Shown: positions 53,040-58,455, numbered from the stretch's first letter. The stretch: 64,000 nt of DNA from Dictyostelium discoideum (GCA_000004695.1 CM000151.3:7968001-8032000); one strand, 5' to 3'. A program made the numbers and translations. The notes: a model not told the origin generated them from the letters alone.

Positions 53040-56000
53040 TTAAAATGTTTCATTAGAATTTTGATATTCTTCATTTAATTGTTGGTTTTGTTGTTGTTGT
53101 AGTTGTTGCTGTTGTTGATCTTGTTGTAGAGGTTGTTGGAATAAATATTGATTATCCATTTGGAATGATAAAAATGGTTTATTATTATTATTATTATTAT
53201 TATTATTATTATTATTATTATTATTATTATTATTATTATTATTATTATTATTATTATTATTATTATTATTAATATTATTATTATTATTATTATTATTATT
53301 ATTATTATTATTAATATTATTAATATTATTATAATTATTATTATAATTGTTTTCATCTTGATTATCTTGGAAATTGAAATCAAAATTTGAAGTTAATAAA
53401 GGTGGTGTTGATAAATTTGTTGATAATGTTGTATTTGTAGTTGTAGTGGTGTTTGTTAAAATTGGGGAATTACTATTGGAAGATAATAATGAAGAAGAAT
53501 TTAAAATTGGGGAATTATTATTTGAATTTGAAAATAATGATGATTGTTGTTGTTGTTGTTGTTGTTGTTGTTGTTGTTGTTGTTGTTGTTGTTGTTGTTG
53601 TTGTTGTTGTTGTTGTTGTTGTAGTGGTGGTGTAATTAAACGATGATCATATTGACAATTTACATTTGTGCAACCAGTTGGTGAATTATAATATTTACAA
53701 GGTTCAATTTTTAAATCATGAGAATAAGTACATGAATCACCTTTTGCACATGATGAAGTTTTAAAATATTTACAAACTTCAGTTGGTTTTCTAATTTCAA
53801 CAGGACCTTCATGAATGAATGTACAATCTTTACCTTTTTTACACATACCAATCTTATAAAAATTACAAACCACTGTTAATTCTTTCTTTTCTTTTGGTTG
53901 ATTAAAATCAATACCTTGATATAATTTTGCAGTTTCAATATTTGCTGAAGAAGTTGGTGATGTTAAATTTTTAATATTCTTTTTATTATTATTATTATTG
54001 TTTTTATTTTTATTATTCTTCTTTTTAGGTGACTTTTCTTTAACTTTCTCTTGAATTTTCTTTTTATTTTCTTCAATTTTAACTTTCTTTGTTTTCTTTT
54101 TCTTCTTTTTATTCTTTTTATTAACTTTATTACTATTATTATTATTATTATTAATATTATCATCATTATTATTATTATTATTGTTGTTATCAATTTCATC
54201 AGAGGTATAATTATTATCATTTTGAATTAAAGAATCTTCACTATTTAATTTTAATTTTTTATTATTTTCATTATCATCATCTGAATCTGAATCTGATAAT
54301 AATAATGTATTACCTCTCTTTTTACTTGAAGTTGATATTGATTGATCAAATGATGTGTTTGTATCATCAATCATTAATTCATCTTCATCCTCTCCGTCTC
54401 CATCTTCATCGTCTTCTTCATCGTCTTCATTGTCATCATCGTCTTCATCATCATCTTCATCGTCAACATTTTCATTATTTTCATCATTTTCATCATCTTG
54501 GTCATCATCTTGATTATCATCATTTTCTTCTTCTTCTTCCTTTTTATTATCACTTAAAATAGTTTCTTCTTTATTTGTGATGATTGGTGATGATGATGAT
54601 GAAATTTCTTTTATAATATTTACAATATCTCCATTTTCAATATTTGAATTACTAATTTGATTTGATTTTACTAAAGCTGGTACTGCAGTAAGAGGTTGCA
54701 ATACAGTATTTGTATCTGTAGAAGATTCTGTGGAAGATTCTGTTTCAGAGGATGTTATTTTTGATGATTCAGTAGTATTAGAAGTTTTTGTTGTTGTTGT
54801 TATTGTTGTTGTTGTTGTTGCTGTTGTTGTTGTTGCTGCTGCTGCTGTTGTTGGAGTTTTAATAGATTGTTGTTGACCAATTAATGGTAAAGGTTTTGAA
54901 AAGATATTTGATTGTGGTGGTAACTTTTTCACAGAAGGTATGATTGGTTGTTGATTCATTAATTTAACGCCAAATGATTGAGAATTTAAACTTTTTGTTT
55001 GTACTTTCTTAGTATTGACAATAGTTGGTGGTAATTGATAGATATCCAATAATGGTTTCTTTGGTGGTGCATTTGATGGTATAGAAGAATTTGCTGCTGC
55101 AGTTGCTTTATTGCTACCACCAATCAATGGTAAAGGTTTTGAGAAAATATTTTGGCCAGTTGGTGGTGATGATTTTGGTATTGGTTTGCTAATTGGTAAT
55201 TGTGGTTGTTGTTTAGATGGTGATTGTATTTGTGTTTGACCGATCAATGGTAATGGTGTGGCGAATGGATTCTTTTTCTTTTCGGTAGTGGGTGTAGTGG
55301 TAGTATTAGATGTAGTATCACCAATTGGTATTGTAGTAGTAGTATTTGATACGATAGGAGAAGATATAGGGGATTGGGAAGATGGTGATATGGTGGAAAT
55401 AGAAGTAGTGGTAGTAGTGGTGTTGTTGATGCTATTATTTGGGATTGGTGATGGTTGACTAATTAATGGAAGTGGTGCGAAAATATTCTTTTTCTTTTCA
55501 TTGATTGAAGTAGTGGGTGTTGTTGTTTGTATTGATTGTTCAACATTTTTTGGTGAATCTATTTTTGCTGTTGTCTCTATTATCGTATTTGTTATGGATG
55601 GCGAGGATTGTTTTTGTCCAATTAAAGGTAATGAGGAAAATAAATTCTTTTTCTTTTCCACTATTTCAACATCAGGTATGGGACTCGTAGTTGTTGCCAT
55701 GATTAAATTAGAATTAGTGGATGGTGGAATGACTATAGTTGAATCTGTTGATGGCATTGGTGTTGTAGTTGTTGTAGAAGGTATCATATTATCGACAGGT
55801 GGAGCTATAGTTGAAGAGGATAATGGTATTGTTGTTAGGGTTGGTGTAGATGTTGGTGTAGATGTTGGTGTAGATGAAGGTGAAGGTGTTGTTGTTGTTT
55901 GTAAAGTTGCAGTTGCAGCAGCCAATGTGGCCGATATTGAATTATTTACAGAAGGCTTAATTGAAGCAGAAGCAGCAGCCAATGTCGCAGAGATTGAAGA

Positions 56001-58455
56001 AGAAGAAGAAGTTGGTTGGCCAATTAAAGGTAATGATTTTGAAAAAATACTATTCTTTTTAAATGTTACCGGTTGAATTGGTGTTGGTACTGTATTCGTG
56101 TTATTGGGAGAAGTGGAAGAGAATGATGGTGACGAGGAATTAGTAGTAGTTGTAGTAGTAGTAGTAGTAGCGTTAGTTGAGGTAGTAGTAGGAATGGTCG
56201 GATTTTGAATACTAGTAGGTGATTGTGGTGATGGTAAAATTTGTTGTCCTTGTTGTTGAGTAGCAATTAATGGTAACGCCTTACCAATTAAATTTCTTTT
56301 TTCTAATCTTGGATCAACAGGTTTTGAAATGGTTGGAGAAGGTTTTGGTGATAAATCATCCTTTGGAGAAGATGATGTATTAGTAGTTGTAGTATTATTA
56401 TTATTAGCAATATTAGTATTAGTATTACTACCACTTGAAGAAGAAGAAGAAGAAGAAGAAGATTTTGGTAAATTTAAAGGTGAATTTGGTTGGACAACTA
56501 TTAAAGATTGTTTAATTTTTTGAATAAAAGATTGATTATCTAAATTTTCAGGATTACCAATAATTGTTAAAAACGTTTCTCTTTTGAAAGGATCTGAACT
56601 TAATTCTTTTAAGGATTGTTCTAATTGATCTTGATGTTGTTGTTGAAAGAAAGAATAAATTTGATAACCTTTAATCTTTTGTTGATGAATTTTCTCTTTT
56701 AATGATTTCTTGTATTGTTGATGATCCAACAATGATGGTTTCTTAAAAAACGATAAACAAGATTGAATAACTAATGGTGAAAATAATTTACAAAGTTGTA
56801 ATAATTGTTGATAATTATTAAATGCATCACTAAAATTATTAATACCACCTGGTATTGAATTTAATGGTATACTATTAGTTGTAATATTAATTGCACCATT
56901 ATCACTATGTTGTTGTTGTTGTTGTTGTTGTTGTTGTTGTAATGAAGAAGTAGTAGTATTTGTATTATTTATATTATTTGTAGTATTAGGTATTGTTGAA
57001 GAAGTAGAAGTAGGAGGTATTGTTGTTGCTGTTATTATTGATGATATTGATGAATCTAATTGTTGTTTATTTTGTTGTTGTTGTTGTTGAATTTGTTTTA
57101 ATAATAATAATTGATTTGATAATTGTGATTTTTGATCATATAGATCACTATATAATGGTGAAATGATTGATGAACATTGATTTAAGATTGGTCTATAATT
57201 CTTTGAAATTAATTTACACCAAGTTTTTAAGAAACCTTCAATTTGTTCTTGTTTACATGATTTTAAAGTCAAAGATTGTAATTTGGATCGAATGATTTGT
57301 TTCACCTCTGCATAGTTACTGTCATGTGATAATGCAAATTTAGTTAACGATTGGCAAGACGGTGCTGATATTGAAATATTATCATCGGCTGATAATTCGA
57401 ATAATAACACTTTTAGTGGCGTGAAAAAGGGTGATGATGAATTTAAGTAGTAAGAGATTTGACCGTAATTTAATAGAACCGTGGCTTTAACTGGCGCTGC
57501 GTATCTATGGCTTGATAGAATGGTTTTAAAAATTTTTGAAATCTTTGGTAACCATTCCGATGTTGACGTTCTTGCTAACAAACCCAATGCTTTGCATGCT
57601 GATACTTGAACTTGATAAACATTCTCCATTCGCCACGGATCATCTTCTAAAACTTCTTCAACTTTATGAAATTGTAATAATTCAATTGATTTACTATAAC
57701 AAATTGATTCAATATTTTTATCATTAATAATATCTTTTTTTTTAGAATGTTTAGTTAGTATTTATTTTTTTATATTTATTAAATTACTATTTGTTTTTAT
57801 ATAAATTAATTAATTACATACTACCAGTTGGACAAGAAGCATAACCTAATGATAAAATACCAGCAGATTTTAATTGTGGAATTGTTGATTCAGTTGCTTC
57901 TAACCAACGTTTCATTGACATTGCTCTAATTTGTGAATTTGTTTGTGATAATCTTGAATAAGCTACTAGAATACTACAAATTGTATCATTGGTTGACAAG
58001 GGTGACATTAAATACTTTTCAAATAAAACCAATAAAATACTTTGATAAACTGGATACTTTCTACCAACTCTACTTAAAGCATGAAAACAAACCTTTTTCA
58101 TATAATGATAATTTTCACTCTTAAATTCTAATATCTTTGCTAAAAATGTAATCGTTTGAGTTACTAATGATTCATCTTGACATCCAATTTCACCAATACC
58201 TTTAATTGCATATCTAATAACTGTTTTACTAAAAAAAAATAATAAAAAAATAAAATAAAATAAATATTTTAGAATTGATATAAATAATTATAAAAATATA
58301 TATAATTTTTATTTTAAAATTTATATACCAACCTATATAATAATGGACTATTTATAATATCTAATAATAATTTTAAAATTTTAATTTTAATTGTATTTGT
58401 GCAAAATGTGGATGAAGTAAGTTCGGTAATGCTTTGAACACCAACTTTAACAATT
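53040..58455 (-). CDS. Very large multi-domain protein. The N-terminal exons (58455..58333, 58228..57822) and the start of the main exon (57723..53040) encode HEAT/ARM-like helical repeats. These are followed by Ser/Thr/Pro/Asn-rich low-complexity sequence with about 7 copies of a 'KKKN(I/L)F..PLPLIGQ' motif, and then an acidic (D/E)n block. Near the C-terminus are three tandem CCCH (C-x8-C-x5-C-x3-H) zinc fingers and poly-Gln. The 5' end is not resolved (at least one more upstream exon is expected).
   Basis: Track ORF 53040..57629 (1529 aa) has 'CNFYKIGMCKKGKDCTFIH', 'CKYFKTSSCAKGDSCTYSH' and 'CKYYNSPTGCTNVNCQYDH'. The frame stays open upstream of its M to an acceptor AAAAAAAAAG at 57724-57733 that is preceded by a TACTAAC branch-like motif. 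A phase-1 donor GTATGT at 57816-57821 joins exon 58228..57822 (...KTVIRYAIKGIGEIGCQDESLVTQTITFLAKILEFKSENYHYMKKVCFHALSRVGRKYPVYQSILLVLFEKYLMSPLSTNDTICSILVAYSRLSQT...). That exon is joined by a phase-2 donor (AG|GTTGGT at 58333) to a further exon, 58455..58333, that lacks an in-frame ATG. Confidence 0.7.

Follow-up and report, generated by a model that had tools for sequence, protein, structure and literature searches.

A conserved array of seven short linear motifs in the disordered linker of an unannotated ARM/HEAT and triple-CCCH protein of Dictyostelium discoideum

The window analysed here, a 64,000-nucleotide stretch of Dictyostelium discoideum DNA (GCA_000004695.1 CM000151.3:7968001-8032000), carries on its minus strand a multi-exon gene for a protein of ~1,800 aa, in which a short peptide with the consensus N-[ILP]-F-[SA]-x(1-2)-LPLI-[GSA]-[QGT] occurs seven times (window positions 54873-56294). 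The seven copies are a real, conserved, multivalent linear-motif array of an unannotated protein family. Our main reading, given a probability of roughly 0.6, is that these peptides form a multivalent array of short linear docking motifs for a partner protein.

The motif copies and their host protein

The minus-strand ORF at 53040-57629 encodes 1529 aa from ATG to stop, and its frame is open upstream to 57734. This last exon contains the C-terminal part of the ARM/HEAT domain, the helical middle domain, the disordered motif region and the acidic block, followed by a Lys-rich stretch, three CCCH fingers and a polyQ/polyN tail. In the probable first exon, as read in the window, the frame is lost before the conserved EEFNEAITTCFSLIETSHQDYR; D. 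firmibasis P0002 reads ...QIKRKEEFNEAITT. Features are given from the 5' end of the gene, in window positions.

58870..59055, minus strand: probable first exon, MQQPQN...
58332..58454, minus strand: upstream exon IVKVGVQSITEL...SPLLYR, N-terminal ARM/HEAT helices; homologous stretch in P0004, P0005 and P0006, boundaries approximate
57823..58227, minus strand: upstream exon KTVIRYAIKG...CPTG, part of the ARM/HEAT domain; aligns to Cavenderia P0001, splice boundaries approximate
53040..57734, minus strand: last and largest exon; acceptor near 57734, collinear with the Cavenderia orthologue
56541..56825, minus strand: conserved helical middle domain, AFNNYQQLLQLCKLFSP...GNPENL; 43% identity to Cavenderia, pLDDT about 90 in orthologue models
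56304..56315, minus strand: conserved DPRL element, adjoining motif copy 1 on its upstream side
56259..56294, minus strand: motif copy 1, NLIGKALPLIAT, Phe lost
56016..56051, minus strand: motif copy 2, SIFSKSLPLIGQ
55614..55646, minus strand: motif copy 3, NLFSSLPLIGQ, preceded by EKKK
55455..55487, minus strand: motif copy 4, NIFAPLPLISQ, preceded by EKKK
55236..55271, minus strand: motif copy 5, NPFATPLPLIGQ, preceded by EKKK
55116..55151, minus strand: motif copy 6, NIFSKPLPLIGG
54873..54908, minus strand: motif copy 7, NIFSKPLPLIGQ
54375..54539, minus strand: acidic D/E block; equivalent block after the motif array in Cavenderia and Balamuthia
53643..53867, minus strand: three CCCH zinc fingers (Pfam and regex)

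LPLI is found exactly seven times in the 1529-aa ORF, each time within the motif context (7/7). An earlier note on this DNA had described an approximately 7-fold motif in 54880-56300, and both the number and the coordinates agree with ours. Its EKKKN prefix is present in three of the seven copies (3, 4 and 5) and absent from the other four, and the spacing of 60-100 residues was wrong, as start-to-start distances measured 40-135 residues. The Phe is missing from copy 1; D. firmibasis keeps it at the same position (NNLFGKALPLIS). When the 580-aa disordered region was shuffled 20,000 times, no shuffle reached seven LPLI (maximum 2) and none reached five F..LP.[LI] (maximum 1). The motif array is non-random.

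Full-length AlphaFold models of two orthologues (P0003 and P0006) represent the N-terminal region as a helical ARM/HEAT-type solenoid, with pLDDT >90 for the folded domains in both and an all-helical fold matching ARM/HEAT structures. The helical middle domain and the CCCH fingers also appear in these models. Pfam HEAT_2 matches eight homologues (best E = 1.6e-6); the window protein itself has no Pfam HEAT match, and comparison of its N-terminal domain by sequence with solved structures and Pfam returned nothing specific. The CCCH spacings are C-x7-C-x5-C-x3-H twice and then C-x8-C-x4-C-x3-H, with a zf-CCCH PF00642 match of 28 bits against a gathering cutoff of 20.5 (Pfam). The DPRL element is common to D. 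firmibasis, P0003, T. lacteum, Balamuthia P0008 and the metagenomic P0020. The combination of HEAT repeats, acidic block and three CCCH fingers proposed from the sequence is thus borne out by the Pfam and regex fingers, the acidic block and the modelled solenoid. It had also been called unrecognised, which agrees with the databases: no Pfam family spans it, and every named record looked up is hypothetical, uncharacterised or a generic CCCH-finger protein.

Conservation and origin of the repeats

All seven copies are present and in place in D. firmibasis (7/7). Tieghemostelium (T. lacteum) has seven (NIFSKPLPLL[KVR]D), Acytostelium four, and Heterostelium, Cavenderia (NIFSQALPKLL) and one further dictyostelid (EukProt record) three each, and a related F-x-x-PPP-L-I occurs nine times in Balamuthia P0038, as [DE]xF[FSC][ST]PPP[LI][IL]. 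In each of these proteins the array follows the middle domain and precedes the acidic block with the fingers. Between D. discoideum and D. firmibasis, 74/82 motif residues are identical (90%), as against 304/568 in the remaining disordered region (54%; Fisher p = 2e-11). Outside the motifs, the linkers of D. discoideum and Cavenderia cannot be aligned. Judged by these sequence comparisons, the motif is more tightly constrained than the sequence around it and holds the same architectural position across Dictyostelia and Balamuthia; the Balamuthia motif could be convergent instead of homologous.

Orthologues were found by exhaustive phmmer search, and a word-indexed protein search overlooked some of them. 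With the N-terminal query, the word-indexed search gave only one match, a mis-modelled Cavenderia protein; with the concatenated motif profile and with the zinc-finger region this search, which misses orthologues that phmmer finds, gave none. Besides Amoebozoa, the family extends, as judged by its N-terminal domain, to Cyanophora, Preaxostyla and two orphan eukaryote lineages, with no detection in well-studied animals, fungi or plants. A motif HMM scored distant homologues only negatively, below shuffled controls. Possible single copies were noted by eye in Rhizamoeba (NLFVESPLVSNL), Pyxidicula (SFQAPPVVV), TZLM3-RCL (SFSLGSLIGG) and a metagenomic member (LSPLPLSM); because of the HMM scores they are statistically unsupported. 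The literature search gave no relevant match for the motif strings and none under guessed dictyBase identifiers.

A repeat of this kind might have no function and merely reflect low-complexity sequence or a recent internal duplication; simple repeats are abundant in D. discoideum coding sequence, and copies 6 and 7 share 91% identity over a stretch of 34 nt. However, nucleotide column identity among the copies is 60%, their flanks are unrelated, the motif codons for L, P, I and G vary synonymously, and Tandem Repeats Finder reported no array covering them, so that the recent DNA tandem duplication considered in the earlier note does not account for the array. Nor do orthologues lack the motif, the other ground on which it might have been discounted: it is kept in all dictyostelid orthologues examined and in the Balamuthia homologue, with the linker diverged beyond alignment. 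On the orthologue comparison, and with the observed LPLI count reached by no shuffle, a functionless origin was rejected as scarcely credible.

Docking and alternative readings

Since the motif stands out as a conserved island within disordered sequence, the multivalent docking site suggested at the outset is the best reading. We infer both that the motif binds in trans and which partner it may bind. On this reading the host protein is a nuclear-type RNA-binding scaffold, ordered as ARM/HEAT solenoid, helical middle domain, linker, acidic block and three CPSF30/ZC3H4-like CCCH fingers, and the array occupies its disordered linker. Each copy would present a pair of hydrophobic contacts separated by a few residues, the Phe and a Leu-x-x-Ile/Leu that is usually proline-set (P-L-P-L-I). 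Because the gap of 2-3 residues is variable and prolines are present, the peptide would be extended and strand-like, laid on the surface of another protein, and not a helix. Sites that are individually weak and repeated 3-9 times may bind by avidity to an oligomeric or multi-domain partner; alternatively, several partner molecules might be loaded onto one RNA-bound scaffold. No known motif class fits every copy. A more novel proposal is that the peptides are a previously undescribed SLiM class (F, 2-3 residues, [P]-L-x-x-I), read by a domain new to such peptides, that their host family of ARM/HEAT and triple-CCCH RNA-binding scaffolds is an old eukaryotic one without annotation, and that they recruit several effector copies to bound RNA; we hold this tentatively, at a little under an even chance.

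Among known motifs the nearest is the PPPLI ligand bound by MYND zinc fingers, which Balamuthia matches exactly and Dictyostelium only approximately, and by this analogy a MYND domain protein is a conceivable, if rather unlikely, partner. According to later papers and reviews, the MYND domains of ETO and DEAF-1 bind SNPPPLISSA (SMRT) and RPPPPLIPSS (NCoR) as a beta-strand. The peptide is contacted mainly at its first Pro and its Leu (PMC6837996), DEAF-1 binds the SMRT/NCoR peptides with millimolar Kd, and CoREST3 has three PPPLI-like motifs, all of which must be removed before RUNX1T1 binding is lost. Exact PPPLI is found in 5/9 copies of Balamuthia P0038, P-x-x-[LM]-[ILV] in 4/7 window copies (26/43 overall), and Dictyostelium encodes MYND proteins, one of them a SMYD3 relative. 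Strict PP.LI occurs in 0/7 window copies and 0/34 dictyostelid copies; the MYND-contacted Pro is replaced by Ser or Ala in 3/7 D. discoideum copies, and several copies from Acytostelium, Heterostelium, P0003 and Cavenderia have Pro, Gln or Lys in place of the 'Leu'. The upstream Phe, the most conserved motif residue, has no role in published descriptions of MYND recognition (later papers and reviews). The MYND PXLXP class (BS69, SMYD), searched as P.L.P, was found in 0/7 window copies and 1/43 overall. A peptide search of PDB chains with the Dictyostelium motif returned nothing, and a match of the Balamuthia motif to a repeated FSG.PLIL in the bacterial LH2 gamma subunit was set aside as a chance resemblance.

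The motifs might instead dock onto the ARM/HEAT or middle domain of this protein itself, by autoinhibition in cis or self-association in trans, or act as hydrophobic condensation 'stickers' of the RNA-bound scaffold, which we consider improbable. ARM/HEAT solenoids are classic extended-peptide binders, and the top fold matches of the solenoid include importin-alpha and designed armadillo-peptide complexes; a look-alike segment, SPFFTPLKVLLFEL, lies inside a folded domain, and the motifs supply nearly all the hydrophobic residues of the Ser/Thr/Pro linker. In the full-length models of P0003 and P0006, however, the motif region is undocked and without secondary structure (pLDDT 30-40, no strand or helix), with no rise in confidence at any copy, and SPFFTPLKVLLFEL is a buried helix, so that its resemblance is probably due to chance. 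The models point to a motif region that is accessible, disordered and not self-docked; their alignments are 26-27 sequences deep, which makes absent docking weak negative evidence.

As docking sites for PP2A-B56 of the LxxIxE type (L-P-L-I-x-E/D/Q), the peptides have L-x-x-[ILV] in most copies and E, D or Q at position 6 in 24/43, with D/E dominant there in T. lacteum. Glu at position 6 is a defining residue of this class, but it is found in only 5/43 copies, with 0/7 in D. discoideum (mostly Gln, otherwise Gly or Thr) and 0 in Balamuthia, and the upstream Phe is left unexplained; this identity is very unlikely. There is similarly little chance that the copies are SUMO-interacting motifs (psi-x-psi-psi) in an array reading poly-SUMO chains. 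L-P-L-I fits the pattern in 7/7 D. discoideum copies, and in T. lacteum, Acytostelium and Cavenderia the motif is followed by acidic residues, but the core is present in 0/9 Balamuthia, 0/3 Cavenderia and 0/3 P0003 copies, the flanking residues in D. discoideum are basic or Gln rather than acidic, and neither the conserved Phe nor the prolines belong to a SIM.

Of the partners named in the earlier note, the SH3, WW and EVH1-like domains fared poorly, and the wider view that the peptides serve a classical recognition domain for proline or NPF (EH included) was largely refuted by pattern tests and is highly doubtful. The motif contains proline, and NPF occurs in 5/43 copies, but the prolines are spaced P-x-P, with PxxP in 0/7 D. 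discoideum copies (11/43 overall), the EVH1 class I pattern ([FWYL]P.xP, Phe directly before Pro) is found in 0/43, none of the seven copies has the Tyr of a WW PPxY site, and NPF is limited to 1/7 in D. discoideum, the others having I, L or V (NIF, NLF or NVF). Other classes discarded by regex were the clathrin box (0/43), EB1 SxIP (4/43) and LxxLL (Cavenderia copies only). Calcineurin PxIxIT, the Mtr4 arch-interacting motif LFx-phi-D, U2AF ULM and FG repeats were rejected on sequence by eye.

Significance and comparison with known systems

Multivalent motifs in disordered linkers are a route by which many RNA-processing and chromatin scaffolds recruit effectors, and the array is a clean, strongly constrained example in an unnamed protein family of a genetically tractable organism, where the motif provides a direct experimental handle on family function. 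Should the partner prove to belong to the MYND proteins, the range of PPPLI-type recognition would widen from animal co-repressors to include Amoebozoa; otherwise there would be a new motif-domain pair to find. We regard the significance as moderate and specialist, without general surprise.

Among multivalent SLiMs, SF3B1 carries a ULM array and RNF4 a SIM array. The D. discoideum array is like these in its short, conserved, spaced copies within a fast-evolving linker and differs from them in sequence, and no known receptor fits its motif. With the PPPLI ligands of MYND domains (SMRT/NCoR, CoREST3) it shares a short proline-flanked Leu-Ile core in a disordered region and several copies per protein; the known ligands bind weakly as extended strands, and the D. 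discoideum PLPLI keeps P-x-x-L-I in 4/7 copies. In contrast to these ligands, the dictyostelid copies are without PP.LI, their contact Pro and Leu are not invariant, and they have an extra upstream Phe.

For the folded domains, the Symplekin N-terminal domain and Integrator IntS4/IntS7, which are ARM/HEAT scaffolds of the RNA 3'-end machinery, and the karyopherins are fold-generic matches with sequence identity of 8-15%. In matches made with the family profile, the three fingers scored E = 5e-14 with CPSF4, 2.5e-11 with Yth1 and 2.8e-12 with KIAA1064. CPSF30/Yth1 (fingers 1-3) and the ZC3H4/Su(s)-type (KIAA1064) modules have the most similar fingers, with similar spacing, a likeness that does not establish orthology. 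Unlike CPSF30/Yth1 and ZC3H4, the protein described here has three fingers only, and they follow an ARM/HEAT domain and a motif linker that those proteins lack.

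The gene and its repeated peptide

The repeated peptide is encoded on the minus strand by the last exon of a multi-exon gene, in a very AT-rich window (13-32% GC) where polyQ and polyN coding repeats are abundant, as in Dictyostelium generally. Reading of the upstream DNA showed at least three exons ahead of the last one, and the assembled gene product is ~1,800 amino acids long.

Exons of the gene and location of the motif copies (window positions)
near 58870-59055, minus strand: first exon, from translation of the upstream DNA
~58332-58454, minus strand: upstream exon, from translation of the upstream DNA
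~57823-58227, minus strand: upstream exon, from translation of the upstream DNA
53040-57629, minus strand: last exon, from ORF reading, with the frame open upstream to ~57734
54873-56294, minus strand: seven motif copies, coordinates checked by translation
EKKKNIFSKPLPLIGQQ: D. discoideum motif peptide

In the first exon (58900-59055, minus strand), the frame from the ATG (MQQPQN...LQIKRK) ends in a stop and the conserved continuation EEFNEAITTCFSLIETSHQDYR sits in a different frame, while the D. firmibasis counterpart is unbroken (...QIKRKEEFNEAITT). The sequence suggests a 1-nt error or a genuine frameshift near 58935-58945, or another start in this strain. Beside the 3' end of the gene, a plus-strand ORF (51749-52888) looks by eye like a 2-oxoglutarate/Fe(II)-dependent oxygenase, and the neighbour on the other side (59686-63387, plus strand) is multi-exon, with a large ORF that by eye looks like a Rictor/pianissimo-type TORC2 subunit.

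The protein contains LPLI seven times, every time within N-[ILP]-F-[SA]-x(1-2)-LPLI-[GSA]-[QGT]. The linker around the motifs has 580 residues, 48% of them Ser, Thr or Pro, and among 20,000 residue shuffles of this region none contained seven LPLI (highest count two). The earlier note's description of a sevenfold linear motif is therefore right apart from three minor points. The prefix EKKKN that it included is present in three copies and missing in the other four; the Phe is present in six, copy 1 (56259-56294) having Ile-Gly at that place; and the copies are spaced 40-135 residues start to start, rather than roughly 60-100.

Other conserved or repeated elements were seen in the same protein. 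Directly ahead of copy 1 (56304-56350, minus strand) is a conserved SPKPSPTxSKPVDPRLEKR, which may serve as another linear motif or cap the middle domain at its C-terminal end; DPRL is found before the first motif or after the middle domain in D. firmibasis, the dictyostelid orthologue P0003, Tieghemostelium lacteum, the Balamuthia member P0008 and a metagenomic member. Between copies 6 and 7 (~54910-55080, minus strand) lies the island PKKPLLDIYQLPPT...KSLNSQSFGVKLMNQQPIIPSVKKL, conserved almost without change in D. firmibasis and with recognisable counterparts in T. lacteum (IPIYELP...HSLGMKLM) and P0003 (NIFELP...HELGKKLM); it looks like a further functional element of the linker. An internal duplicate, SISATLAAASASIKP / SISATLAAATATLQT (~55860-56000, minus strand; 85% DNA identity over 33 nt), is kept in D. 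firmibasis. Within the folded N-terminal domain, SPFFTPLKVLLFEL (~57390-57435, minus strand) is conserved in all dictyostelid orthologues and resembles the linker motif NPFATPLPLI, and an N-terminal helix of Acytostelium and Heterostelium carries RINIFSKLLEII, near NIFSKPLPLI. These look-alikes are probably chance resemblances, though they could be a sign that a contact within the molecule is mimicked.

Conservation of the motif and divergence of its DNA

Among the homologues, a D. firmibasis protein is closest, at 96% identity over the query domain, and phmmer, run exhaustively with the exon of the window as query, gave 50 relatives. A word-indexed homologue search gave one match, a Cavenderia fasciculata protein with a truncated gene model. 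Because this search missed orthologues at 60-96% identity in its own collection (recovered by phmmer, their presence confirmed by cluster look-up), its negatives do not mean absence.

All seven copies are retained at corresponding positions in D. firmibasis. T. lacteum has seven (NIFSKPLPLL[KVR]D), Acytostelium four, and Heterostelium and a further dictyostelid in EukProt three each. The Cavenderia genomic locus encodes a full orthologue with the order of parts unchanged and three copies of N-[IP]-F-[SA]-Q-[AG]-LPKLL; BLASTP aligned it with the window protein in three blocks only (N-terminal domain 64%, middle domain 43%, finger region 53% identity), the linker being otherwise unalignable. The Balamuthia mandrillaris homologue (31% identity in the domain) matches the architecture of the window protein and carries [DE]-x-F-[FSC]-[ST]-PPP-[LI]-[IL] nine times, between the middle domain and an acidic block. 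Copy number thus ranges from 3 to 9 by species, while the place in the architecture is constant. Between D. discoideum and D. firmibasis, identity was 90% (74/82) at motif residues versus 54% (304/568) in the remaining disordered region (Fisher p = 2e-11). Across Dictyostelia the Phe, a Leu two or three residues on (usually after Pro) and an Ile/Leu three residues further are invariant; the positions between them vary (P, A, Q, S, E; L, P, M, K).

The earlier note had named orthologues without the motif and a recent internal tandem duplication of DNA as observations that would speak against its reading; dictyostelids and Balamuthia keep copies, and alignment and repeat searches of the DNA did not reveal such a duplication. 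The seven copies aligned as DNA have a mean column identity of 60%, with the motif alone in common, synonymous codon differences (Leu TTA/TTG/CTT, Pro CCA/CCT, Ile ATT/ATC, Gly GGT/GGC/GGA) and unrelated flanks; they do not form a DNA repeat. A repeat finder picked up the motif as a short family (five copies, 68-91% identity over 34 nt), and Tandem Repeats Finder reported in the gene just the usual trinucleotide and short-period arrays, situated elsewhere than the copies.

An uncharacterised ARM/HEAT-CCCH family

Pfam matched only the CCCH fingers of the window protein, which resemble fingers 1-3 of CPSF30/Yth1 and the fingers of ZC3H4 (KIAA1064). HEAT_2 matches were obtained in eight homologues, and no dedicated Pfam family was found for the main, N-terminal domain. 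AlphaFold models of two full-length orthologues, P0003 and P0006, built on alignments of 26-27 family sequences including the window's exons, show a confidently predicted solenoid made up entirely of helices (pLDDT above 90), another helical domain and a finger region at pLDDT ~70-87. Named members are found in Amoebozoa (Dictyostelia, Balamuthia, Rhizamoeba, Pyxidicula, Nematostelium, Amoeba proteus) and beyond (Cyanophora, Monocercomonoides, Blattamonas, two unclassified eukaryotes and one locust-filed record); all are annotated as hypothetical, uncharacterised or generic CCCH proteins, and the records examined hold no functional annotation. The earlier account of an unrecognised combination of HEAT repeats, acidic block and three CCCH fingers is thus accurate. 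The family is probably RNA-binding.

The locust-filed record (P0010, XP_049852270.1, Schistocerca gregaria) may be contamination from an insect-associated protist, because it is without fingers and lies on a short, 86-kb contig; the other named, non-repetitive members looked up are protists.

Probable mode of action and comparison with known motif classes

The motif forms a patch of conserved hydrophobic residues in an unstructured linker that evolves fast; with its variable copy number and fixed position, it bears the hallmark of a short linear motif in multivalent use. Given its prolines and variable Phe-to-Leu gap, the motif would be an extended stretch that makes contact at two points, rather than a helix. 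The two full-length models place the motif region at pLDDT 30-40, predict neither strand nor helix there and show no gain in confidence at any of the copies, and this low confidence throughout gives no computational sign of docking on the protein's own domains. The models thereby favour a partner in trans, if weakly, the alignments being shallow.

The 43 copies, drawn from eight species, were all scored with the pattern of each plausible known motif class. The array could be read as SUMO-interaction motifs, the core being present in 7/7 window copies, but these are without acidic flanks and the core is found in no copy from Balamuthia, Cavenderia or P0003. The SH3 and EVH1-like partners proposed in the earlier note do not fit (PxxP in 0/7 window copies; class I EVH1 pattern in 0/43), and EH-domain NPF (5/43), SxIP (4/43), the clathrin box (0/43) and PP2A-B56 LxxIxE (5/43, but no window copy, most of which have Gln at position 6) were rejected. 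Five tandem QEGEY.[GS][FY]SG.PLIL repeats in a bacterial light-harvesting protein (PucA-LH2-gamma, PDB 7zcu chain S) have a superficial likeness to the Balamuthia motif EGEDFSSPPPLIT that is almost certainly coincidence.

The feature is genuine, a conserved and multivalent array of linear motifs whose sequence type lies outside every known class, and the searchable literature yielded no mention of the motif strings. Arrays of this kind are already well known; this one is no major surprise, and is a useful experimental handle of moderate interest to those who work on linear motifs or on RNA biology in Dictyostelium.

Of the known classes, the PPPLI ligand bound by MYND zinc fingers comes closest; its contacts involve chiefly the first Pro and the Leu (PMC6837996). 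Dissociation constants of the DEAF-1 MYND for PPPLI-type ligands are millimolar, and CoREST3 has three such motifs, RUNX1T1 binding being lost only once all three are deleted. Exact PPPLI occurs five times in the Balamuthia homologue, the relaxed P-x-x-[LM]-[ILV] in 26/43 copies, and Dictyostelium has MYND proteins, one a SMYD3 relative. However, strict PP.LI is in no dictyostelid copy, the contacting Pro is replaced by Ser/Ala in 3/7 window copies, the contacting Leu becomes Pro, Gln or Lys in several copies of other dictyostelids, and the Phe, the best-conserved motif residue, is without a counterpart in the MYND ligand. A MYND partner is for these reasons regarded as a lead of low probability and not as a classification.
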